DNA of 64,000 nucleotides from Candidatus Eiseniibacteriota bacterium (GTDB lineage Bacteria > Eisenbacteria > RBG-16-71-46 > CAZAMP01), in assembly GCA_965224245.1 (NCBI GenBank), contig OZ245046.1, positions 6,080,001-6,144,000 on the forward strand, written 5' to 3'. The notes under the pieces were generated by a model. That model was not told where the DNA came from and did not search any database. It saw only the letters and a program-made list of their open reading frames with translations. Numbering within the stretch: the stretch's first letter is position 1; each line of letters begins with the position of its first letter. Both the position numbers and the translations under genes were made by a program. Below, one piece after another: positions 1,490 to 47,344 of the stretch.

Positions 1490-2632
1490 GTGTACCCGGG
1501 TGCAAACCGCTCGCACCGCGCGCTCGTCTCCACGGGTGTACCCGGGTCTGAACCGCCCCCGGTTTGTCGGAGGGTCGATTCCTCGAGAGGATGGAGTCCA
1601 TGGGACGTTCAATCATGTTCTCCCCCGAGGTCCGCGAGCGGGCGGTTCGGATGGGTCGGGAGCACGAGGGCGAGCACGACTCGCAATGGGCCGCGATCCG
1701 CTCGATCGCGACCAGGATCGGGTGCACGCCGAGACGCTTGCCCAGGCGGAGCCCGACGGTCGAGCAACGTGATGGTGTCGTTCATCGATGAACACCGGGA
1801 CACGTACGGAGTCGAGCCGATCTGTCGGGTGGTGCCGATGCTCCGTCGACCTACCACGAGATCAAGGCCCAGGAGCGCGATCCATCGCGTCGCTCGGCTC
1901 GGCGTCGTCGAGACGAGACGATCTGCACGGAGTTCGGTCGTTCCGCTCGGAACCGCTTCCACGACGTCCACGGCGCGAAGAAGACCTGGAAGGAGCTGCG
2001 TCGCCGGGGCCTCGACGTGGCGCGACGGACGATCGATCGTCAGATGCGCGCCATGGGCCTGCGTGGCGCGGCTCGGGGTCGTGCGTTCAAGACGACGGTG
2101 GGAGCGGATCTGGCCACCCGTCCGGCCGATCTCGTCGACCGCAACTTCTCGGTGGCACGTCCGAACGCGTCTTTGGTGACCGATCTCACGCACGTATCGA
2201 CCTGGAGCGGGTTCGTGTTCGTGGCGTTCGTGATCGACCCGTTCTCGCGTCGCATCCTGGGCTGGGGTCTCGGGGTCGCTGCGTACCGACACGGTCCTCG
2301 ATGCTCTGGAAGAAGCCCACCTCACGCGTGGAGCCGCGCTCACGGGGCCGCTGGTTCATCACAAGCGAGGCGTGCGATACCTCTCGATCCCCTGAACCGA
2401 GCGTCTGGAAGACGCCGGGATCGAGCTCTCGGTCGGGAGCAAAGGCGACAGCTACGACGACGCGCTGGCCGAGACGTCATCGGGCCGTGCAAGGCGGAGC
2501 TGATCCGTACGCGCACGTCAGCGCGCGTGTACCCGGGTGCAAACGGCTCGCGCCGCGCGCACGTCAGCGCGTGTGTACCCGGGTGCAAACGGATCGTGCC
2601 GCGCGCACGTCAGCGCGCGTGTACCCGGGTGC
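1490..2632. repeat. 46-bp-period repeat array (core GTGTACCCGGGTGCAAAC) split by an IS3 remnant
   Basis: Core copies start at 1490, 1536, 2527, 2573 and 2619, with 46-bp spacing on each side of the IS. Confidence 0.8.
1549..2510 (+). mobile_element. Degenerate IS3-family element (IS51/IS6110-like), frameshifted and 3'-truncated
   Basis: Left end TGAACCGCCCC; orfA FSPEVRERAVRM; orfB pieces YGVEPICRV, DLVDRNF, TDLTHVSTWSGFVFVAFVIDPFSRRILGW, KAELI lie in different frames. Confidence 0.85.
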
Positions 2633-4004
2633 CGTCGGCGACGTCGCTCGGCGGGGTCACGATCAACGTCTCGCCGGCGTCGACGCCGCTCTCGATCTCC
2701 ACCACGCGGCCTCCGCGCACGCCCACGACCACGTCGCGGCGCCGGGCCCGACCATCCTCGACGACGAACAACGCCTCACGGCCGTCGCCCACGTCGAAGA
2801 GAGCGCTCGAAGGGGCGGTGACGACGTCCCGCCGCTCGGCCGTCACCGCGCGAACCTCGACCCGGAACGCATCGCCCAGGGCCGCCCAATCTGTGCGTGG
2901 CGACGTGATGTCGAGCCGGACGTTCACGCGCTGCTCCTCGACCCCGAGGGCCGACGTCTTCGTGAACCCCGACGGCTCGACCACGCGGATCACCGCGTCG
3001 AGGGGGGTCGCGCCGCCCCATCGCTCCACGATCGCGCGCATGCCGGGACGCAGGCGTACCGCGTCGCGCGAGAGGAAGTCGGCCACGATCTCGAGCGAGC
3101 GTGGATCACCGATCTCGACCAGCGCCTGCCCGCGCTCGGCGATCCCGGCGTCCTCGCGCAGCACGCGGAGGATGCGACCCGACACCGGGGCCCGGATCAC
3201 GACCTCGGCCGCGGCGACGCCGCCGTCCGGGGAGGCACCGCCGTCCGGGGAGACACCGCCGTCCGGGGAGACGTCGCCGTCCGGGGAGGCACCGCGGTCC
3301 GGAGAGGCGCCGCCGTCCGGGGACACACCACCGTGTGGGGACACACCGCCGTGCGGGGACACACCGCCGTGCGGGGACACACCGCCGTGGGAGGGCACGG
3401 TGCCATCCGCCGTCGCCCCGATCGCGCCGACCTCGAGCGCGGCGGATGCCTCCAGCGTGGCCCGCGCCGCGTCGACCTGGAACGCGGCCACCTGGCGGGC
3501 GAACTCCGCGGACGCGTGCGTCGCCTCGGCCGTCTCGCGGCGCGTGCGGACCTGGTCGACCTCTTCCTCGGAGACCCCGTCGCTGGCCCGGAGCGCCAGC
3601 ACGCGCTCCAGCGACGAACTGGCGAGCGCGAGTTCCGAGCGCGTCCGCGTCACGTTGGCCTCGGCCTCACGCAGCGCCGCTTCGGCCGCGCGCAGCGTGG
3701 CCTCGGCCTGGGCCCTCGCGCGGACGTCGAGGAGCGGGGAGGCGGGCGAGGTCAGCGTGGTGATCGGATCCCCGGCCTCGACCGCGTCGCCGGGGTCGAG
3801 CGTGACGCGGGTGATCATCCCCGAGATGGGCACCGTCAGCGTGAACCGGTCGATCACCCGCGTGCGGCCCTCGGTCACGATCGTCTCCAGCACGTCTCCG
3901 CGCTCGGCGGTCACGAGCTCGCAGCCCACCGGCTTCGGCAGGAACCCGTAGACGATCGCGGCGAGGACGATCAGCCCCACCACGATCACGGTCACGCGTC
4001 GCAT
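2610..4004 (-). CDS. Efflux periplasmic adaptor subunit (HlyD/MFP family)
   Basis: N-terminal TM helix, lipoyl-like halves (PISGMI, IRAPVSGRIL), coiled coil, FTKTSALGVEEQRV; last gene of ABC operon. Confidence 0.9.
   Translation of the reverse strand: MRRVTVIVVGLIVLAAIVYGFLPKPVGCELVTAERGDVLETIVTEGRTRVIDRFTLTVPISGMITRVTLDPGDAVEAGDPITTLTSPASPLLDVRARAQAEATLRAAEAALREAEANVTRTRSELALASSSLERVLALRASDGVSEEEVDQVRTRRETAEATHASAEFARQVAAFQVDAARATLEASAALEVGAIGATADGTVPSHGGVSPHGGVSPHGGVSPHGGVSPDGGASPDRGASPDGDVSPDGGVSPDGGASPDGGVAAAEVVIRAPVSGRILRVLREDAGIAERGQALVEIGDPRSLEIVADFLSRDAVRLRPGMRAIVERWGGATPLDAVIRVVEPSGFTKTSALGVEEQRVNVRLDITSPRTDWAALGDAFRVEVRAVTAERRDVVTAPSSALFDVGDGREALFVVEDGRARRRDVVVGVRGGRVVEIESGVDAGETLIVTPPSDVADGTRVHAR
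3220..3392. repeat. In-frame 18-bp tandem repeat (~9 units, GG[VA]SP[DH])
   Basis: ccgccgtccggggagrca-type units inside the adaptor gene. Confidence 0.85.
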
Positions 4005-16071: not shown

Positions 16072-16146
16072 TCCTCGGTAGCTCAATGGTAGAGCAAGCG
16101 GCTGTTAACCGCTAGGTTGTAGGTTCGAGTCCTACCCGGGGAGCCA
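16072..16146 (+). tRNA. tRNA-Asn (GTT)
   Basis: Cloverleaf: TCCTCGG/CCGGGGA acceptor, GCTC/GAGC D stem, AGCGG-CTGTTAA-CCGCT anticodon arm, GTAGG-TTCGAGT-CCTAC T arm, encoded CCA. Confidence 0.97.
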
Positions 16147-16177
16147 CGCTCTGGGGGCGTCTACGGGCGCCCCTTCT
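16138..16177 (+). repeat. attL-type 40-bp direct repeat (tRNA 3' end + hairpin)
   Basis: GGGGAGCCACGCTCTGGGGGCGTCTACGGGCGCCCCTTCT, identical to 47071-47110. Confidence 0.93.
16154..16177 (+). terminator. Hairpin / probable tRNA terminator
   Basis: GGGGCGTC-TACG-GGCGCCCC followed by TTCT; weak U-tract. Confidence 0.5.
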
Positions 16178-16593
16178 CGTTCACGCCCGGTTTGCCCTTC
16201 TCGTCGACCCTTCGGCCGTATATCGCGTTGGGGCGCAACGTTCTCCGGCGATTTGAAGCGCTCGAATTCTCAGCATTCTCGGCCGCTGATTGCGCCCGCG
16301 ACCGGGTTCGCAAGGCGTCCGACGTGGGCACCATGTCTCAGCATCCGCAAACCCATGGCCTGGTGGTTAACCGCCCTGGGCTCCGTTGGTCGCTCGCGGC
16401 GTCGTTCTCAGCTCCAGTTCTGTTGACACCTCCGGCCAGGCGTCACTTGAAGCGAGGCCCTCGGCATTCGGGTTTCCACGACTCCCTGCCGCGTGCCGAA
16501 TTGAACTAAACTCCTCGTCTATCGAGATCGTGAGCATTATGGATCGCCTCGCAGGCGTTCCAGGGACCGCGACTCAGCGACAGGGGCCCCTCG

Positions 16594-24907: not shown

Positions 24908-25504
24908 ATGAGGATGCCATATCGTGCCCCCGAGACCATGACCACCGCCGAGCAGCGACGGCTCCTCGACGTCAGCGCCGAGAGCCCACGCCCACGCGAT
25001 CACGTGATGATCTCGCTTGCACTCGGCACCGGGCTTCGGCTCGGCGAGCTGCTCGCGCTCGACGTAGGCGACGTCAGCCCCGATGGCGTCCACGTACGCA
25101 CCCGCGTGAAGCTGCGCGTCGAGACGACCAAAGGCTCGCGCAAGGGCGAGGTGTTTCTGCCCGATCGGGTCGTCGAGAAGCTGACGCGGTTCCTGGCGTG
25201 GAAGTCGATGATGGGGGAGTCGCTCGATGGCGACGCGCCGTTGTTCATCTCATCGTGGGGGAGACGGTTGTCGGCGAGGCGGACGCAGATGATGTTTCAT
25301 GGATGGCAGCGCAGAGCCGGTTTTGATCGACTGTACAACTGGCACTGCACCAGGCATTCGGCTATTTCCAACGTCTACCGAGCGTCTCGGGACCTCTTCC
25401 TCGCCCAGCGGTTCGCTCGCCACGCGTCACCCCTCACCACCATCATCTACACCCACGTATCGGATGAGGAGATGGCGGAGAGAGTGAAGGAGCTGCCGTG
25501 TTGA
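24908..25504 (+). CDS. Tyrosine recombinase, catalytic domain only
   Basis: RD...TGLRLGELL, TKG, HCTRHS, ARH.S..TT.IYTH; only 198 aa. Confidence 0.9.
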   Translation: MRMPYRAPETMTTAEQRRLLDVSAESPRPRDHVMISLALGTGLRLGELLALDVGDVSPDGVHVRTRVKLRVETTKGSRKGEVFLPDRVVEKLTRFLAWKSMMGESLDGDAPLFISSWGRRLSARRTQMMFHGWQRRAGFDRLYNWHCTRHSAISNVYRASRDLFLAQRFARHASPLTTIIYTHVSDEEMAERVKELPC

Positions 25505-26371: not shown

Positions 26372-26701
26372 TCAGGGCAGGGCGCGGCGCTGGTCCGTCC
26401 ACGAGATCGATCGCAGCGCGGCCCGAAGCCGGGTCTCCCCAACCACGATCGTCCCATCGAGCAGCCCCACCTGGATGTCCGGCGCCAGTCCCAGCAGCGC
26501 CGTGATCTGCGAGAGCCGCGCCCTCGACACCCCGGCGACCCGAGCCACCTCGGCGAACGACTCCACACGCCCGTCGCGCACCATCTCGTCGAGCATGAGC
26601 GCCAGCGCCATGAGCCGGGCCGATCGGGGCACGGTGGGGACATCGGGTTCGGCGGCAGGGGCAGACTTGGGGCGAAACGTGGCGCGTATCGTCACGCTCA
26701 T
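26372..26701 (-). CDS. Small HTH protein coupled to the serine recombinase
   Basis: SFAEVARVAGVSRARLSQITALLGLAPDIQ; overlaps the LSR stop. Confidence 0.8.
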   Translation of the reverse strand: MSVTIRATFRPKSAPAAEPDVPTVPRSARLMALALMLDEMVRDGRVESFAEVARVAGVSRARLSQITALLGLAPDIQVGLLDGTIVVGETRLRAALRSISWTDQRRALP

Positions 26702-28248
26702 GGGCCACCTCCGGGCAGAAGCGAGGCCGCTTCCTCGCGAAACGTAATCGCCACCTCGCCTGACGCCCCGTCGTACTCGACACGCTCGACGAGCAGCGCC
26801 AGCGCCTCGTGCTTCTCACGCGCCGTCAGACGCGCCCACAATGCGTCGAACTGCGACATGGCTTCCGACACGCCCGTGCGGTTGATCGCGCGGCCACGGA
26901 CGGCTGTGAGCGTCTCCTGGGCCACACGGCGGCGGTGCTCGGTGGTCTTGACCCGTCGCGTGATCTCGGTGATCCGATCGTCGTCGGCATCGCCACGGGC
27001 GCGGTTGAGTTCTCCACGCATCTGCTTGATCTCGGCGTCGAGCAGGCGGACGTCGTTGGCCAGTTCCTTCGCGCGGGCTTTCGCCTGGGCCTTCGCCGAC
27101 GCGACGGTGGCGGCGATGAGCTTCGGGTCGCTGCCGATGCCCCGGATCTGGTCGATGACGAACGCTTCGATCTCGCCGGCGGCGACCGGAGCAGTGGGGC
27201 AGACGTGGGCGCCTTCCTTCACGCGTCGCACGCATGAGTAGTAGCGATACCTCCGCGAGCCCTTCGTCGTCGCGGTCCTCGTCATCGCGGCGTCGCAGGC
27301 CGAGCATCGGAGGAGACCGGCGAGGAGGGCGACGCGCTTGGTCTTAGGCGCTGAGCCGTTCGTCACGCGATTGCCTGCGAGGCACGCCTGGACCGCCTCG
27401 AACGTCGCGACGTCCACGATGGCCTCGTGCTCGGCATCCACGATCTCGTCGCCGCAGCGGATGCGCCCGGCGTAGAGCGGGTTCGTCAGGAGCTTCTGGA
27501 GAGTCGACTTGCCGAAGGCCGAGTCGCCGTAGGTCTTGCCCGCCGCCGAAGCCCACCGCTTCGTGGTCCAGCCTCGACGGCGGATCTCGGCGATGGTGGC
27601 CGCGAGCGATCGCGTCTCCAGGTACGTCGCGAAGATCGCGCGCACCCGCTCGGCCTCGCCCTCGTTCACGACGAGCCGGCCACCGCCGTCCGCGATGTCG
27701 TACCCAAGCATTGGCACGCCGCCCGTCCACTGACCCCGTCGACGCGCCGCACGCATCTTGTCTCGCGTGCGCTCCCGGATCATCTCGCGCTCGAACTCGG
27801 CGAAGCTCATCAGCATGTTCAGCGTCAGCCGGCCCATCGAGGTGGACGTGTCGAGCTGCTGGGTCACCGAGACAAGGCCGACCTCGTGCTTCTCCAGCGT
27901 CTGCATAATCCGCGCGAAGTCCAGCAACGCACGCGAGACGCGGTCGACCTTGAGGACGACGACCCGATCGATCAGGCCCGCCTCGATGTCGCGCAGCAGA
28001 CGCTGGAACGCGGGTCGGCGTGTGTCGCCGCCGCTGAACCCACGGTCCTCGTAGACGTCGGGGAGCGCGGTCCAGCCGGCGTGGCGCTGGCTCGCAATGT
28101 AGGCGAGGCAAGCCTCCCGTTGCGCATCGATGGAGCTGAACACCTGATCCGCAGCATCATCGACCGATATGCGGACGTAGACGGCGCAGCGGACCACCGG
28201 CGGCGCCTGACGCCTGCCGTTGCGCGATGTGGTCGACAGGGCGGCCAT
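26698..28248 (-). CDS. Large serine recombinase (resolvase + recombinase + Zn-ribbon domains)
   Basis: CAVYVRIS, YEDRGFSG...RPAFQRLL, DRVSR, FAEFEREMIRERT, NPLYAG, LLRCSAC...YYSC. Confidence 0.95.
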   Translation of the reverse strand: MAALSTTSRNGRRQAPPVVRCAVYVRISVDDAADQVFSSIDAQREACLAYIASQRHAGWTALPDVYEDRGFSGGDTRRPAFQRLLRDIEAGLIDRVVVLKVDRVSRALLDFARIMQTLEKHEVGLVSVTQQLDTSTSMGRLTLNMLMSFAEFEREMIRERTRDKMRAARRRGQWTGGVPMLGYDIADGGGRLVVNEGEAERVRAIFATYLETRSLAATIAEIRRRGWTTKRWASAAGKTYGDSAFGKSTLQKLLTNPLYAGRIRCGDEIVDAEHEAIVDVATFEAVQACLAGNRVTNGSAPKTKRVALLAGLLRCSACDAAMTRTATTKGSRRYRYYSCVRRVKEGAHVCPTAPVAAGEIEAFVIDQIRGIGSDPKLIAATVASAKAQAKARAKELANDVRLLDAEIKQMRGELNRARGDADDDRITEITRRVKTTEHRRRVAQETLTAVRGRAINRTGVSEAMSQFDALWARLTAREKHEALALLVERVEYDGASGEVAITFREEAASLLPGGGP

Positions 28249-28250
28249 GG

Positions 28251-28739
28251 TCAGTCTCTCGCTCCCTTGAGCCAAAACACCTTGCCATTCCAGTTCACGC
28301 CCGTCGCGGCCCTCGCCGCCCCGCTGAGCGAGCGGTACACGTCGCCGTCGAACTCGAAGCCGCCGTGCTCCAGGACACGGCACTCCAGGACGCGGTCTCT
28401 GTACTCGCGGCGAAGCACCGTGCCGGCGGGCGGGAGGTTGAGGTCGCGCGATGGCAGGCGATTGCGGACTCGGCGGGTTGCGGAGCCATCGGCGTTAGTC
28501 GGCGGTCGCGTGCGCAAGAAGCTGAAGTCTGCCAACTCACGCGCGCGTTCCATCACCGCTGCCGGATGTCCGGTCCAGCCTTCCTCTCGCGCCTGGAGCC
28601 GCCAGATCACGCGCTTGATCAGGTGCGGCTTCGAGTGCGCCCGCGTCGGCTCCTGCCACACGCGCTCATACTCCCGCTGCAACTCCTTCACCGTCATTCC
28701 CCCGAGCCGTTCGAACTCGGTGTCGATGTCGAGCGCCAT
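28251..28739 (-). CDS. DUF2924-like protein
   Basis: L.KRVIWRLQAREEG, PAGTVLRREY, FEFDG..YRSLS.AARA.TG..WNG..F; immediately upstream of LSR. Confidence 0.85.
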   Translation of the reverse strand: MALDIDTEFERLGGMTVKELQREYERVWQEPTRAHSKPHLIKRVIWRLQAREEGWTGHPAAVMERARELADFSFLRTRPPTNADGSATRRVRNRLPSRDLNLPPAGTVLRREYRDRVLECRVLEHGGFEFDGDVYRSLSGAARAATGVNWNGKVFWLKGARD

Positions 28740-39546: not shown

Positions 39547-39853
39547 CCCCCGAACCGTGCCCTGGCGCACGGCGCGAGGTGCCGATCCACGACGCGGAGC
39601 GCATATAGATGTGCCGAACGGCGACGCGCCGACCCCTGAAGACGCCCGAAACAGGACGCGAACGGCCCCTCGGTCTGCCGAACGGGGACGCGACTGAGCG
39701 ACTCGGCGATGCCGTAAGTTGCAATGGTGCAACCGGTGTGGCGATGGGGTCCCCTCGGTGAGGGGCATCAGGCGGGCACCCCAGAGCGATTTCTGCGCTG
39801 AAATCGGACCCTAACCTGGCCCCTCGCCCCGAAACAGGCTCTCTGTCGTCTAT

Positions 39854-39877: not shown

Positions 39878-40055
39878 TGAGGTTACGCTGGGCGCGACAC
39901 CCGCGTCCGTATCGCGATAGACTCACCGGGAATGCTGGGGAGTGCGGCGAGCGACGCTGCGCAGAGCCAGGTGAGCATGGCTGGCGATCTCACGACTGCG
40001 CCCATCACCTTATCTTGATAACATCCGGCTCGGTCTTGTTTCTTCCAAGATTGCG

Positions 40056-40358
40056 GTGGGCCACGCCCTTCCCTCGTTCGAAAAGCATCCCCGGATCTGG
40101 TCAGTGTCGAACCCATCGGGCCCGATCACCCACTTGAAGTACAACCTACCGGTTGGTGGTCGGGCGACTGTGACTATCGTTGACGTAGCGGGAAGGACCG
40201 TTCGAAGTTTTCCGGTCACGCACGATCCGCCGGGCACGTATCGGCTTACTTGGGATGGACGGAATGATGGTGGACTACTGGTATCCGCCGGCGTGTATGT
40301 CGTGAAGCTTGAGACAGACAGAGACACAGCCACGTACCGCGTTGTCATGACGCAGTAG
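40056..40358 (+). pseudogene. Orphan FlgD/T9SS-like CTD fragment
   Basis: NPS...VDVAGRTV...TWDGRN...AGVYVVKL with no upstream domain or signal peptide. Confidence 0.65.
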
Positions 40359-40436
40359 CAACACCCGAGCAGTCGCATCTTCCGAAGTGAGTACGCACTG
40401 ACCTGCATCCACATGCCGTAGGCGGCGTCTTCCATC

Positions 40437-40493
40437 GTGCGCCCGCATCCCACGGACCATGCGAAGTACGAGGTCATCGACGGACACGACCGC
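40437..40493 (+). pseudogene. Short ParB fragment
   Basis: VRPHPTDHAKYEVIDGHDR vs VRPHPSDDGKYEVIDGHHR at ~36915. Confidence 0.65.
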
Positions 40494-40599
40494 GAAGAAC
40501 CCCGCACACGCGGTTCGCGCCTCCGCAGGCCAACGGCGAGACTGGCCCGCAGTGTCCTAAAGTGGTGCGCCGCAAAAAGCGACGACATCCCGCCTCGTT

Positions 40600-40858
40600 C
40601 GAAGAGGAGGCCGCGTTCTGGCCGGCCCGTCTCGACATGCCGTTCGAGGTGGTTGCGCTAGCGGACGTCGATCACGACGGTCGTATGGACATGCTCGAGC
40701 GGCAAGGTGATGGCCTCGTGATACGTCGCGGGTTGCCCAATGCATGTTTCTCACTGGAGACGTACCTGGCCGGCGATCCAGAGCCGGACGATGAGGTCTG
40801 GTGGCGAGACGTGACGGGCGACGGGATCTGTGATCTGCTGTCAAGTGGCTACTACTCC
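40600..40858 (+). pseudogene. FG-GAP/VCBS-repeat gene fragment cut by IS66
   Basis: ADVDHDGRMDML, RDVTGDGICDLL; ends at the IS66 terminus. Confidence 0.55.
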
Positions 40859-42270
40859 GTAAGCGGTCAGCCTAGGACGTCGGTCCACCCGGTCGGTCCA
40901 GCATGGACTGCAGCGGCTCCTCGGCGAAACGCGTCTTCCACTCACGCGGCGTGAGTTCATGGACGTTCTTCGCGGGATGGATCGCCACGCGCTGCAGCAC
41001 GTCGACGAGGTAGGCGAACGGATCGACGCCGTGAAGTCGGCACGTGACGATGAGGCTCTGCACCCACCCCAACGCCTCGGCACCCACTTCGGTCGTACAG
41101 AACAACCAGTTCTTGCGCCCGAGCGCCACCGGGCGGATCGTGCGCTCCAGGTGGTTCGTGTCCGGCGCGACGGCCGGATCGTCGAGGAACACCCGTAGCG
41201 CTCTCTCACGATCGAGCGCGTAGCGTGCCGCTTTGGTGAACGGACTGGTCGGCAAGAGGACGTGCTCATCCATCGCGGCCTCCAGCGCCGCGAAGAACGC
41301 GTCGACGATCGGGCGGCTGTGCTCGCGCCGATGCGCGAGGATCGCGTCGGGACCATCGAGCTCCGCGGCGCTCGCCTCTTGCTCATAGAGCGCACCGATG
41401 CGATCCAGCGCGTCACCTGCCAGCGAGGGTTCCACGTCCTCGCCGTCCACGAACCCGCGACGCACGTGGGCCCAGCACTGCGCATGCACCACCCCGGCAC
41501 GACGCGCCGCGTACTTCTCGTAGGCCTCGTACCCGTCGCTCAGAAGCGTGCCCGAGTAGTCGGCCAGGACCTCCTGGACCACCGCATGCGCCCGCGTCGG
41601 CGAGAACACGAACGCCACCTCGTCACGATCCCCGTACACCGGCCAGAAGTACCCGGTCTTCATCGTCCCCCGGTTCGGCGGCTTGCCCTTCTTGCGGCCC
41701 GCCTTGATCGGCGTCTCGTCCATCGCGATCACCTTGCTCGCGAGGATCGACTCCACCTGGGCCGCGAAGATCGGCCCCAGAAGGTCAGCCGCTCGATGGA
41801 AGTACGTCGTCAGCGTCGAGCGGCCGATCCGTACGCCGCTGGCCGCCAGACGCTGGTGCTGGCGATACAGCGGCAGGTGGTACGCCAGCTTGTCGATCAG
41901 CATCCCGGCCAGGAAGCTCACGTCGGCCACGCTCTTCTCCAACACGGTGATCGGCGCTGGCGGGCAGGAGAACGTCTCGTCGGTCTTGTGCTTGAACACC
42001 GGACGCACGATCCGAAGCACCACGTACGCGGCGGGGCGCTGGGCCAGCCGCTCGGTGACCTTCTCGCCGATCTTCTCGTACTGGTCCATCTCATCGGCCG
42101 GGATCTCGAGATTCGGGATCACGACCGTCTCCACCGGCACCGACTCGTCGAACCGGACTCCGGAGCTCGTGTCGCGTGGGGGGCGTCGACGCCGGGTGTG
42201 AGCACCGACCACCGTCGTTGCGTCCGCGGGCTCGGACGGCGCGTCGATCTCGCCGGGGGAGCAGAGGCCA
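40859..42270 (-). mobile_element. Truncated IS66-family element (partial tnpC)
   Basis: Terminal GTAAGCGG at 40859; HLPLYRQ, DETP, SDGY, CWAHVRR, NHLERTIRPVALGRKNWLF; 5' part and tnpA/B missing. Confidence 0.88.
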
Positions 42271-42344
42271 CGTTACGTGGGATGAACTCACACAGTCCTG
42301 GAACGGCTTCTAGGACCGTTTGGTCCCCCAAAAAACTTTGCCGT

Positions 42345-42373
42345 TCCTTCCCCGTGTGCGCGGGGATGGACCG
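42345..42373 (+). CRISPR. Solitary type I-E-like CRISPR repeat (no array; no cas in window)
   Basis: TCCTTCCCCGTGTGCGCGGGGATGGACCG: 29 nt, CCCCG..CGGGG hairpin, ATGGACCG 3' end as in I-E repeats; partial CGGTTCC 34 nt downstream. Confidence 0.65.
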
Positions 42374-42809
42374 GCAGCGGGATCGCAGTTTCCGCCCGGC
42401 GATTACGCGGTTCCGTTCCAGATGCTGAGCTGCGTCGTGGTCGAGCCCGGCGACGGGTCGCTCCAGCCGGAAGCAGGGGAGTTCGAGTTGCGTTCTGGGG
42501 TCCCGGGCGGGACGCTTACGCGAACCCGAGTGCAGGCTGGAGCGACCCGTCGACGAGCGGGATTCTCACTCGCTGGACGTCGACGCCCTTGCACGGCGCA
42601 CCCAGTTCCCGACCCTACCGGGTTCCATGAACGGACGTGTGCGGCATGCCACCGCAGTGCAGCTCTCCCCTACAGCTTCGTGCCTACGGCGCCCATCGTG
42701 TGCGCGGCGAGGGGATTCTATGGAAAGGCACACAGGCAACGCGCTATACTCACGCTGCGAGCAGTCTATTGGGGTGTTTACGGAGCCTGCTACGAAGGGA
42801 CCGACAACC

Positions 42810-44987
42810 ATGCGTGTTCATGTCGCCTCAGTGCTTCTCTTGGTGCTTGGTGCAACATCGAACGTTGAAGCCGAGGAGAGCTATCGTCCAGATCAGGCGA
42901 TCGTCCGGTTTCAGCCCGGGCTCGTGGAGTTTCCTGAGCACTTGGGCCGAGAGGTTTCACTCGAACAGATCGCGTTCGGTTCGGAATCCACGCGGACGCT
43001 TCTACGGGGACTAAGTGTTGTCAGCTTCCGAACGATCGCGCCGGAATGGCGCCACCTACCACTCCCGCCTCACGTCGACATCCACGGAAACGAACTCGCG
43101 AAGCCCCTCATCGACTTTACGGACGTGTACCTACTGACGCTCGCTACATCGGATGCGGCAGCCGTTGTGGGGACGCTTGGTCGAATGGAGCAAACCGTCG
43201 TCTATGCTCAAACAAACGACCGTGTTCGTGGAACCGCCGACGGAGACTGTGACCCTGACTCGGTCATTGTGAACGATGAGTTCTTCCCGGAGACATCCAC
43301 CTTTCCTGGGCAATTCTGCTTCAACAACACCGGGGTGTATCAGGTCGGCGCAGATACTGCCCTTGTTGACATCGACATCAACCTTCGCGAGGGATGGGAC
43401 GTTTGGTCCGACGTGACCGTGAAGGTCGGAATCGTGGATGTTGAGTTCGACAAAGATCACGATGACTTGGCCGGTGTCTTCGACCCGAATCTGTCGGCCT
43501 GTTTTCCCGCGGACCCCCTGTCCACGTGTGATTGGTTCGGTACTGCCGGCCAAGACCACGGCACGTCCTGCGCGGGTTTTCTCGCAGCACGGGCTAACAA
43601 CGACTGCGATGTCAACGGTGAAGAGTGCCTAGGCGTTGTAGGAGTACTTGGCAATGCGCCAAGCATTAGCTCGACGCCTCCCGTGGTGGCACTCCGCGTT
43701 GAGGCCACGGCTGGAGCGACCTACGTTGATGGGCTTTGCGATGCGTTCGAGTACGCGCATACTGCCTCGCTGCCGATTGTATCTTCAAGCAGAGTTTCTA
43801 GCTCTGGCGGTGGAGCATCGTTCTGCCTTGCCGAAGCGGTGAGCAATCTTGCGCAGAGCGGCATCCTCCTCGTGAACAGCTCCAGCAATCAAGCGGACGA
43901 CTTCCCTACACTCCCAGTGCGGTGGGATTCTCTCACTCTTGGCGTAGGCGCTGTGACGATCGAAGGCCAGGCGCCTGTGGGGTATCACAGAGGACCCTGG
44001 ATCGACGTCGTGGCTCCCGGTGGTACAGGTCCTGCGCCGCACACGACAGCTCGCGGCAATAACTACACAGCGTTCGGTGGGACGTCGGCTTCTGCTCCTC
44101 AGGTTGCTGGCGTGGCGGCGCTGATCGCGTCGCATACAACGCATGCCGAGCGAGAGGACTTGGTGAGCATCATCGCTCGACGCGCGGTCCTCCTTCCCGG
44201 ACAGATGGAGCCTGACTCAACGTTCGGCAGCGGGCTGGTGAAACTGGACAGATCACTATGCTGGGTAGAGGATAGGGACCTAGTGCACGGCACGAAATCA
44301 CAGACACCGACTCCGACCGAACACGCCGTGGAGCAGAGGAGTTTTCGCCACTGCGAGGACTTCCAGCCAGGTTCTTCCTCGGAAACACTGTACACGAAGG
44401 TGTGGGAGTACGAGGTCAGCGTCACGTTTCCTCCACACTCTGGGATCCTTGATTCGACGCATGTGTGGGCCCGCGACCACCTCTCTCCCGGTTGGCGAGA
44501 TACGTCGGACGTGAATGGCATCGAGGACATGACCTGGGCCGGTGTTCGCAACGTTACGAGCTCCGGCTGCGACCTGTACTCATACTTCTACGAGGTATAC
44601 AACGACGCTCTCTTGACGGACTTTCGTGGTTGGCATCCGTACGATCCGACCGGCGTTCAGCCGTCGCCAATGCAGTGGCGTTACTCGGCCATGCTGGAGC
44701 CGTCGAGTTCTAGGGCGAGTGAGTCGTCATCGGCTGATCTCGACATGGATCGTTCGGTCGACGCGACGCAGTTTGTCGTCCCCGTTTCCATAGAGGGAGC
44801 CGTACAGGTTGAGGCGTTCGATGTCCGCGGTAGATCCGTGAAGTCGTGGGACACTCTTCCGGTTCAGCCGGGCATGACCGTCATCGAGTGGGACATGGAG
44901 CTGCGAAGCGCCTCCGCGGGGGTCTACTTCCTTCGAGCGACGACCCCGAGTGGAAGACGAATCGTTGGGAAGGTCGTGCACAGATGA
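42810..44987 (+). CDS. Secreted S8 subtilisin-like peptidase with CTD
   Basis: VGIVD, DHGTSCAG, DVVAPG, GGTSASAPQVAG, FGSGLV; FDVRGR...GVYFLR tail. Confidence 0.9.
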   Translation: MRVHVASVLLLVLGATSNVEAEESYRPDQAIVRFQPGLVEFPEHLGREVSLEQIAFGSESTRTLLRGLSVVSFRTIAPEWRHLPLPPHVDIHGNELAKPLIDFTDVYLLTLATSDAAAVVGTLGRMEQTVVYAQTNDRVRGTADGDCDPDSVIVNDEFFPETSTFPGQFCFNNTGVYQVGADTALVDIDINLREGWDVWSDVTVKVGIVDVEFDKDHDDLAGVFDPNLSACFPADPLSTCDWFGTAGQDHGTSCAGFLAARANNDCDVNGEECLGVVGVLGNAPSISSTPPVVALRVEATAGATYVDGLCDAFEYAHTASLPIVSSSRVSSSGGGASFCLAEAVSNLAQSGILLVNSSSNQADDFPTLPVRWDSLTLGVGAVTIEGQAPVGYHRGPWIDVVAPGGTGPAPHTTARGNNYTAFGGTSASAPQVAGVAALIASHTTHAEREDLVSIIARRAVLLPGQMEPDSTFGSGLVKLDRSLCWVEDRDLVHGTKSQTPTPTEHAVEQRSFRHCEDFQPGSSSETLYTKVWEYEVSVTFPPHSGILDSTHVWARDHLSPGWRDTSDVNGIEDMTWAGVRNVTSSGCDLYSYFYEVYNDALLTDFRGWHPYDPTGVQPSPMQWRYSAMLEPSSSRASESSSADLDMDRSVDATQFVVPVSIEGAVQVEAFDVRGRSVKSWDTLPVQPGMTVIEWDMELRSASAGVYFLRATTPSGRRIVGKVVHR

Positions 44988-46585: not shown

Positions 46586-46897
46586 CGTGCACACCGGGGC
46601 CGCGAAGGACGGGCGTGGTCCTCCGCCGTTCTTCACTGGGTTCGACCGTTGACCACGAAAACGGCTGGAGTTCGATGAGAACGGCGACCCCGCGTCGGGG
46701 TGGCCGGCAAATGGCGTTGGGCTCTCACCCGTTACCGACCACCACCGGAGTCATCGTGGTCTGGGAAACGCGAAGTCACGCCCGTTAGCGTCCGAGAATC
46801 GTGCGCCGCGAAAAGACATCGACGTCCAGCGGGTGCAAGACCTGCCGGCGACGGGTGGCTCCAGACGCAGTTCGAGGTTCGAAACGAATTGTGGTAC

Positions 46898-47073
46898 CCC
46901 ACGTCGGACGCTCTGCAGAACTGAGAATCAAGCGGGTCGCGAGGAGTGCGAAGCGACGCATCTCGCAACTCGCATTGGAGAAAGCGCTTACCCGAGTTCG
47001 CGAGGCGTCCGAACCGGACACCAAGTAGGACGCAAAACGTAACAGAGAAAGTTAGCGGAGCGTCCTACGTGGG
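46898..47073. promoter_or_regulatory. Right-end cluster of GCGTCC(G/T)ACGTGGG boxes (putative recombinase/accessory sites)
   Basis: Copies at 46898-46911 (-), 47021-47033 (-), 47060-47073 (+); also 16315-16328 and 47248-47261. Confidence 0.6.
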
Positions 47074-47110
47074 GAGCCACGCTCTGGGGGCGTCTACGGG
47101 CGCCCCTTCT
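47071..47110 (+). repeat. attR of element 1 / left att of element 2
   Basis: 40-bp identity to 16138-16177, followed by >200 bp homologous to 16178-16400. Confidence 0.92.
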
Positions 47111-47344
47111 TGTTGACTCTTCCTCACGCCTCTCTCGCCACCCCGAGGCCGTATATCGCGTTGGGGTGCAACGTTCTCCAGCGATATCCAGGCGTCGGAG
47201 TCTCAGCACCCTCGCGCGCTTCTATCCCCTCGCCGGGGGTTCGCCGGGCGTCCGACGTGGGCGGCAATTCTCAGCATCTGCGTAACCGTTCGGGCATCCC
47301 ATCCGGGTGATCAGCCCGTGTCCCGGCGCGCTGTCGGGTGAGGC

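Follow-up and report, generated by a model that had tools for sequence, protein, structure and literature searches.

We identified a solitary type I-E-style CRISPR repeat in the 64-kb window (the whole stretch of DNA that was analysed), and with a probability of about 0.6 it is a relic, inert in its present host, of either a lost array or a repeat unit borne by the island. This explanation is placed first because a cognate host system, a promoter-like site, conservation and an intact surrounding element are all missing. The features referred to below are the following:

16072-16178, plus strand: tRNA-Asn gene (16072-16146) and left direct repeat (16138-16178)
40872-42272, minus strand: IS66-family transposase gene, 5'-truncated relative to the intact copy on contig C11 (75.7% identity)
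42273-42444: orphan fragment of 172 bp that carries the repeat, bounded by two truncation junctions
42330-42335: A6 tract, U6 on the minus strand, 3 nt past the extended hairpin
42339-42376: extended near-palindrome of 38 nt, with arms at 42339-42354 and 42361-42376 (16 nt each, 88% complementary)
42345-42373, plus strand: solitary type I-E-style CRISPR repeat, the 29-mer TCCTTCCCCGTGTGCGCGGGGATGGACCG, with core stem CCCCGU/GCGGGG (one G-U pair), loop GUGC and a 3' part, AUGGACCG, corresponding to the crRNA 5' handle
42445-42628: long hairpin made of a dispersed unit that is present twice in inverted orientation, with truncation of the left copy at 42445
47071-47111, plus strand: right copy of the direct repeat, closing an island of ~31 kb that encloses the CRISPR repeat

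The 29-mer is present as a single copy in the window when up to 3 mismatches are allowed, with 0 matches in 100 shuffles, and no second copy with up to 6 substitutions was found in the genome (6.94 Mb, 27 contigs, 69% G+C). For comparison, a position matrix and a covariance model were built from 28 distinct array repeats. The array repeats were gathered by scanning one genome per species for a degenerate form of the core, giving 11 loci, 9 of them in arrays with a period of ~61 nt, and a metagenome scan gave 8 further loci, including 2 arrays of GTGTTCCCCGTGTGCGCGGGGATGAACCG with AT-rich leaders in front. Leptonemataceae, Gemmatimonadales, Rhizobiaceae, Streptomyces, Thermoplasmatota, Cupriavidus and Burkholderiales were among the source taxa of the arrays, which we take to be of type I-E in view of the Cas7e beside the array of one class genome (G069) and the known I-E consensus. 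The repeat scored 31.1 bits with the matrix, compared to 18.9 bits for the next site in the 6.94 Mb and 14.9 bits for the top-scoring site of the reversed sequence used as control, and 34.9 bits (E 9.4e-9) with the covariance model. It agrees with 14 of 14 invariant and 4 of 4 nearly invariant columns of the alignment of the 28 array repeats, the only unusual base in that alignment being the T at position 1, where the arrays have G or C. Since the matrix score, the covariance-model score and the conserved columns all agree, positions 42345-42373 are, judged from sequence, a genuine type I-E-style CRISPR repeat with its sense strand on plus, as the sequence-only reading had proposed. Moreover, the 29 nt follow the consensus of I-E-type arrays, GTGTTCCCCG-N6-CGGGGATGAACCG, and have the corresponding structure of a stem of 6-7 pairs, a tetraloop and an 8-nt 3' part ending in ACCG. 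The tail ATGGACCG is identical in the array repeats of loci L011, L013, L015 and L016; over the full length, 26 of 29 bases are identical to the Thermoplasmatota array repeat (L015) and 25 of 29 to those of the metagenome arrays at L033 and L040, while the 4 plasmid records matching the repeat (41-43 bits) do so with array repeats.

No companion of the repeat was detected. Apart from its own antisense, no unit of 2 bits or more was found with the matrix in 41900-42900, and the covariance model, run over the whole window with filters off, gave no partial copy near the repeat at E values up to 10. The earlier statement that the window holds no cas genes and no further full repeats is confirmed. 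A CRISPR array consists of at least two repeats with spacers of ~32 nt, and none was seen at the locus or in the genome, where all other sites score at most 19 bits; the match to a known repeat with no other full or partial repeat nearby is instead what is described for a solitary repeat unit (SRU). Two further sites were considered as a second repeat and rejected, as neither a 15/17 match at 42697-42713 nor the 9-mer GGGATGAAC at 42279 gave a matrix or model score. When 400-nt windows were drawn at random from the genome, 49% contained some shared 9-mer, GGGATGAAC itself being rare (86 occurrences in the genome).

Searches of the host genome for Cse1, Cas7e, Cas6e, Cas1 and the I-E Cas2 gave 0 matches, the genome being 97.4% complete, which falls short of proving absence. 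The Cas3 core gave 6 weak helicase matches, the best of 28.6 bits against a cut-off of 102. Neither a k-mer periodicity scan nor the matrix revealed a CRISPR array in the host genome, the 12 bins flagged by the former all being head-to-tail tandem repeats. The suggestion that the element inhibits or hijacks a host I-E system is therefore not supported, as neither cas genes nor an array were detected in the 97.4%-complete genome, and looking for an I-E cas locus and for CRISPR repeats to compare with the one in the window brought up neither in the host. Upstream of the repeat no sigma-70-like promoter was found, a consensus that may not be that of this phylum. Separately, the host genome contains a run of ~560 C (C1:2,197,560-2,198,119, 93% match) that is probably an assembly artefact.

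The location of the repeat in a mobile element was correctly recognised in the sequence-only reading, because the ~31-kb island, bounded by the duplicated end of tRNA-Asn, encloses it. The direct repeat consists of the tRNA-Asn 3' end and ~35 nt downstream, and the G+C content of the island is lowered. Internal recombinase genes, namely an ORF with a tyrosine-integrase domain (198 aa, perhaps a fragment, at 24908-25504) and a serine recombinase (26698-28383), suggest that two or more elements are stacked at the tRNA-Asn site. The island further carries a phage-type replication module (AAA_24, DUF669, ERCC4, D5 primase, D12 methylase, ParB-like) and a terminase large-subunit gene that is split in two fragments and after which structural genes are absent. 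To the right of the repeat region lie an S8 peptidase gene, whose start is most likely at 42811, and then an FG-GAP gene, and an intact IS66 element (tnpA, tnpB, tnpC) is found just beyond the right direct repeat. Overall, the setting of the repeat is decayed, with a degraded prophage, IS66 debris and two IS66 elements. The repeat itself is intergenic, the ORFs that overlie it having no family matches and a low GC3. SRUs are intergenic on a virus, prophage or plasmid; the island does hold a degraded prophage, yet the repeat is situated in IS-flanked debris beyond the recognisable phage genes. The D5-type primase of the island has 2 distant relatives at loci in viral contigs (35% identity), and neither of these loci contains an I-E-like unit.

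Other features of the window were observed along the way. After the broken terminase gene, at 39550-39692, there are 3-4 iteron-like copies of a TGCCGAACGGCGACGCG-like motif at spacings of 32 and 64 nt. At 1735-1845 an ALIL pseudoknot (Rfam RF01497, 64 bits) precedes an ORF at 2017-3951 with a weak, below-threshold match to an integrase core, which together with ALIL would fit an IS3-family frameshifting element.

Both neighbours of the 172-bp fragment are broken. The adjacent IS66 gene was already noted from the sequence and is indeed there, as the 5'-truncated copy at 40872-42272. The intact element on C11 measures 2370 bp and has GTAAGCGGTCAG inverted repeats, whereas the copy in the window corresponds to C11 positions 100-1354 only, with a reading frame that opens at 42272, and has lost ~58 N-terminal codons, tnpB, tnpA and the left inverted repeat; the missing 5' part was not found elsewhere in the genome. 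On the other side, the left copy of the dispersed unit retains its last 32 nt, while the whole unit is present on C11 and C23. On C11 the dispersed unit lies ~160-200 nt beyond the end of IS66, as it does in the window, and the C11 spacer between the two has no homology to the 172-bp fragment.

Beyond the repeat itself, positions 42273-42444 have no relatives other than chance-level short matches in the host, the 206 class genomes and the phage and plasmid records. The class genomes gave matches to the dispersed unit and weak short ones, including a chance match in G186 in which the hairpin is absent, and the fragment was also without a match in the only other genome of the same family that was compared. 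Phage records gave no match, and plasmid records gave the 4 on the repeat and 4 short, insignificant ones elsewhere in the fragment. There were 0 exact copies of the repeat in viral contigs, where the locus was not matched either, and no Rfam family was called at or near it. In Logan contigs the repeat was covered without differences in 3 of 4 runs (2 samples from one study, possibly the source of the assembly itself), and these contigs contained no variant with a longer array.

The dispersed unit deserves a description of its own. It measures ~65-90 nt, has a consensus of roughly GCTGGAGCGACCCGTTGCCGGGCGGG..CACCCGCTGGACGTCGCCGCCTTTTCACGGCGCAC and occurs in several copies in the genome, the sites being 42445-42628 and 46801-46867 in the window, C1:4120570-4120669, C1:6165339-6165435, C1:6150924-6150978, C10, C11:38064-38138 and C23:4734-4857. 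Copies with 77-82% identity occur in other class genomes, sometimes near contig ends, and 20 of 205 other class genomes matched a 598-nt query, mostly over this unit. In the window, a hairpin of 110 nt at 42446-42557 is built from two copies in opposite orientation, and the S8 peptidase and FG-GAP gene pair is bracketed by inverted copies. Three copies lie 160-410 nt outside IS66 elements, and the unit may be a MITE, a REP-like element or a preferred IS66 target.

The class to which the host belongs does contain type I-E systems. Given Cas7e in 3 of 206 class genomes and the arrays of G069 (40 repeats of CTGTTCCCCGCACGCGCGGGGATGAACCG directly after cas2, with a 60-nt leader) and G122 (at least 49 repeats), I-E systems appear from these gene and repeat matches to be present in the lineage yet rare. 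The repeats of the two arrays are identical to the repeat in the window at 22-24 of 29 bases. When the covariance model was run over 151 class genomes, arrays were found in the same 2 genomes and single matches in 12. Inspected by eye, the single matches in G005, G003, G079, G070 and G043 are, besides that in the window, I-E-like, with damaged stems in G003 and G043, and the remaining six are partial or interrupted. Cas7e was matched in G079 and had no match in G003, G005, G043 and G070. In G005, a class relative publicly labelled Candidatus Eiseniibacteriota, the repeat is followed by a spacer of 33 nt and then by 14 nt that begin a second repeat; the adjacent gene has a translated C-terminus that suggests truncation, and this locus is clearly a deletion stump. 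Taking the class-wide model matches together with the Cas7e absences, lone I-E-like repeats without Cas7e are about as common in the class as arrays, which fits repeated loss. In an I-E-bearing class relative, a lone copy of the repeat of its own array lies ~3.8 kb upstream of cas7 (L060 1338-1366, G162:C362); the sequence just downstream of it reads by eye like an internal part of cas3, and this lone repeat may mark a rearranged cas3.

The flanks of the repeat in the window have a further peculiarity, as they lengthen its hairpin. The folding energy of the extended hairpin is -27.7 kcal/mol, compared to -14.3 kcal/mol for the canonical G069 repeat, and 8 of 10 positions outside the core stem are paired; the maximum was 6 among 320 distinct I-E-type repeat instances, mostly from arrays, that were taken from fetched loci of other genomes. 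The bases that form the extension are the departures of the repeat from the consensus (positions 1-3) and the 6 bases upstream. In the predicted fold the AUGGACCG handle is taken up by the extended stem, and this may interfere with normal processing. The A/T tract that had been reported before the repeat is present as A6 at 42330-42335; lying 9 nt upstream of the repeat, it is the sole A6/T6 run in the 64-kb window, 118 runs of this kind being present in the genome. The tract either remains from an AT-rich leader or, read on the minus strand, provides the U-tract of a terminator-like site. Similar A/T runs occur in the array leaders L018, L013 and L017. The motifs TCGGTAGGATCTTTGA and GGAAGT, common to 4 array leaders, are absent upstream of the repeat where the A6 is present, although leaders vary between lineages, and alignment of the 100 nt upstream with 8 array leaders and 3 lone repeats revealed no shared leader motif. 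Since the shared leader motifs are absent, it is not shown that the locus represents the leader and first repeat of a collapsed array.

Most likely, then, the repeat is a relic, as indicated by the undetected host Cas, the two broken neighbours, the decayed setting, the lack of a sigma-70-like promoter and of conservation, and the lone repeats of the class together with the G005 stump. We propose that the repeat is left over from an I-E array, or from a repeat unit on a mobile element, and that in the tRNA-Asn island deletions or replacements, possibly related to IS66, may have removed its flanks. Stranded without a Cas partner, it would play no part in the CRISPR immunity of the host. The palindrome and the A/U-tract could be a by-product, for instance of quasi-palindrome correction or as a leader remnant, or could reflect a secondary use of the hairpin. 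A single template-switch event of the kind known as quasi-palindrome correction could yield such clustered changes. Residual repeats are also kept by E. coli strains that lack the I-F cas genes. The sequence-only reading had named a stump produced by deletion next to the IS66 as what would overturn its functional interpretation; of the histories considered, this one fits the anatomy best, and the part that did not materialise is its proof, as none of the relatives found has an intact array in synteny. Some observations speak against a relic. The core shows no decay, 18 of 18 conserved columns being intact, and a functional unit would look equally so. Moreover, the pairing of the outer positions exceeds that of any of the 320 instances, and a distance of 9 nt separates the repeat from the sole A6/T6 run of the 64 kb. 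Both point to selection or to a specific event more than to chance remnants.

Among the other explanations, we speculated if the repeat could be a working SRU of the RNA anti-CRISPR (Racr) type, which the island would transcribe and which would act in an I-E-bearing recipient cell while merely being carried in the present host. In this case the hairpin would serve as a substrate that Cas6e binds and cleaves, the stub would then take up Cas7 and Cas5, and Cascade subunits would be tied up. The intact I-E repeat with its perfect stem and handle is consistent with this, as is its solitary and intergenic position in an integrated island whose prophage genes share its orientation. SRUs and Racrs were described by Camara-Wilpert et al. 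(2023, PMC10651486), including RacrIE1 and RacrIE2 for type I-E; in that study, these two I-E Racrs are validated and 2,103 SRUs are reported on viral sequences. The 41-43 bits of our matches to plasmid arrays are close to the 41.1-bit cut-off given there, with databases and settings that differ from ours. Related repeats (22-24 of 29 bases identical) also belong to I-E systems of the class. According to the same study, ~90% of SRU prophages reside in hosts with CRISPR-Cas, and 83% of those share the subtype (PMC10651486), a cognate subtype that our host was not found to carry. A Racr is compatible with the absence of host Cas genes because, as stated in that text, ~1 in 10 SRU-bearing prophages are found in hosts without CRISPR-Cas (PMC10651486). 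Against a Racr stand the cas genes not detected in the host and the rarity of I-E in the class (Cas7e in 3 of 206 genomes), as well as the lack of a promoter-like site upstream, as far as the sigma-70 consensus applies to this phylum. In addition, the ORFs scanned within ~5 kb had no anti-defence-type match in Pfam or PHROGs, the unit is placed between two truncation junctions and separated from the prophage genes by the broken IS66, and no related virus or genome carries it among the viral contigs, phage records and 206 class genomes. Finally, with the AUGGACCG handle taken up by the extended stem, processing may be hindered. Of the earlier proposal of an RNA anti-CRISPR, the solitary I-E repeat on an island therefore stands, and the promoter-like site, the cognate host system and the conserved locus did not turn up; we regard this explanation as unlikely.

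Somewhat less likely again is that the repeat-derived hairpin serves as a cis element, that is, as an intrinsic terminator on the minus strand made of a 15-bp stem followed by AAG and U6. Such an element might, for example, protect the region of the IS66 gene against read-through, or terminate a minus-strand transcript that carries the repeat in antisense. Folded as minus-strand RNA, the hairpin has an energy of -25.4 kcal/mol, and the U6 follows 3 nt later. T6 runs are rare in this genome, and 14 of the 118 have a hairpin of -25 kcal/mol or lower ending no more than 5 nt ahead of them, compared to 5 of 118 in the control, the present site being among the 14; the stem extension is likewise exceptional among I-E repeats. 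However, a consensus terminator scan made no call at the site, the ORFs upstream on the minus strand encode only 63 and 81 aa without family matches, leaving no credible gene or promoter, and the minus-strand gene downstream of the hairpin is itself broken. The A-tract is equally explicable as a leader remnant. It is improbable, though worth stating, that the repeat, once captured by the island, was remodelled into the 38-nt near-palindrome with its U-tract and kept because the hairpin was useful. In that event it could serve as a repeat-derived terminator, as the end of a minus-strand 'anti-repeat' RNA, or as a two-strand decoy against I-E crRNA processing in recipient cells.

Very improbable, and failing because the second repeat is absent by both matrix and covariance model, is the mini-array that had also been suggested, in which repeat, spacer and degenerate repeat would lend a single guide to host Cascade against competitors. 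A 34-nt stretch does follow the 3' end of the repeat, and CGGTTCCGTTCC loosely echoes CGTTCCTTCC at the 5' edge of the repeat. The CGGTTCC at 42408, taken earlier for a vestigial second repeat, is not supported as such, as it has no matrix or model score and is out of register, its distance from the repeat being 66-67 nt where real arrays have a period of 61 nt. The putative spacer fared no better as a guide against mobile elements or the host: phage records gave no match to it, plasmid records gave a single short match of 27 nt that is insignificant (E 0.5), and no second copy was found when 40000-43000 was compared with the host genome by blastn (E 1e-5). The host, moreover, is without a detected Cascade.

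The probability that the repeat is a chance or convergent GC-rich palindrome without CRISPR ancestry, such as a protein-binding site, is next to nil, since although the genome does hold a second extended palindrome (core TTCCCCGT..ACGGGGAT) in a divergent intergenic region, the repeat has all the non-palindromic I-E features (TT before the stem, AT and GGACCG after it) and scores 31-35 bits where no other site in the genome exceeds 19, and the second palindrome departs from the array repeats at the invariant columns G16 and A26 and stays under 14 bits. That palindrome, ATCGTGGGTTCCCCGTATGTACGGGGATTCCACGAT at C1:750,243-750,271 (L002 1498-1526), shares its core with the repeat and is more likely a protein-binding site than a CRISPR relic.

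If the repeat is a relic, it records the past passage of an I-E array or repeat unit through an uncultured lineage, and it adds a case in which a lone repeat in a host without detected cas genes need not be an anti-CRISPR, which calls for caution in SRU surveys. Were one of the minority explanations true, Racrs would be extended to islands of a candidate phylum, or a CRISPR repeat would have been reused as a terminator; in either case the news would be modest, SRUs and array stumps having been described before.

Compared with known systems, the locus most resembles array stumps and orphan repeats left after CRISPR-Cas loss, like that of G005, in being a single repeat in a cas-less genome with rearranged DNA adjoining, and it differs from them in having no leader motif, no spacer with partial repeat and no cas pseudogene. 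With intrinsic (Rho-independent) terminators it shares a GC-rich hairpin followed by a U-run, here on the minus strand; unlike these, it has a gap of 3 nt before the U-run, drew no call from the consensus scan and has no gene upstream to terminate. Viral and plasmid mini-arrays, CreA and crlRNAs (10.1101/2024.12.27.630466) are also cas-less, repeat-derived elements that use a host effector, but consist of two repeats or pseudo-repeats around a guide and rely on a resident effector, whereas the window has one repeat and no effector. Like the Racrs and SRUs described in PMC10651486, the window's unit is a lone CRISPR-type repeat of type I-E, intergenic and in integrated mobile DNA, with no adjoining repeats or cas genes. 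Unlike those, it has no promoter-like site, host CRISPR-Cas or conservation, its neighbours are broken, and its flanks add to the hairpin, which reaches 15 bp and sequesters the handle. In conclusion, SRUs and array stumps have already been described, and what is new here is an instance in an uncultured lineage together with its unusual palindromic extension.
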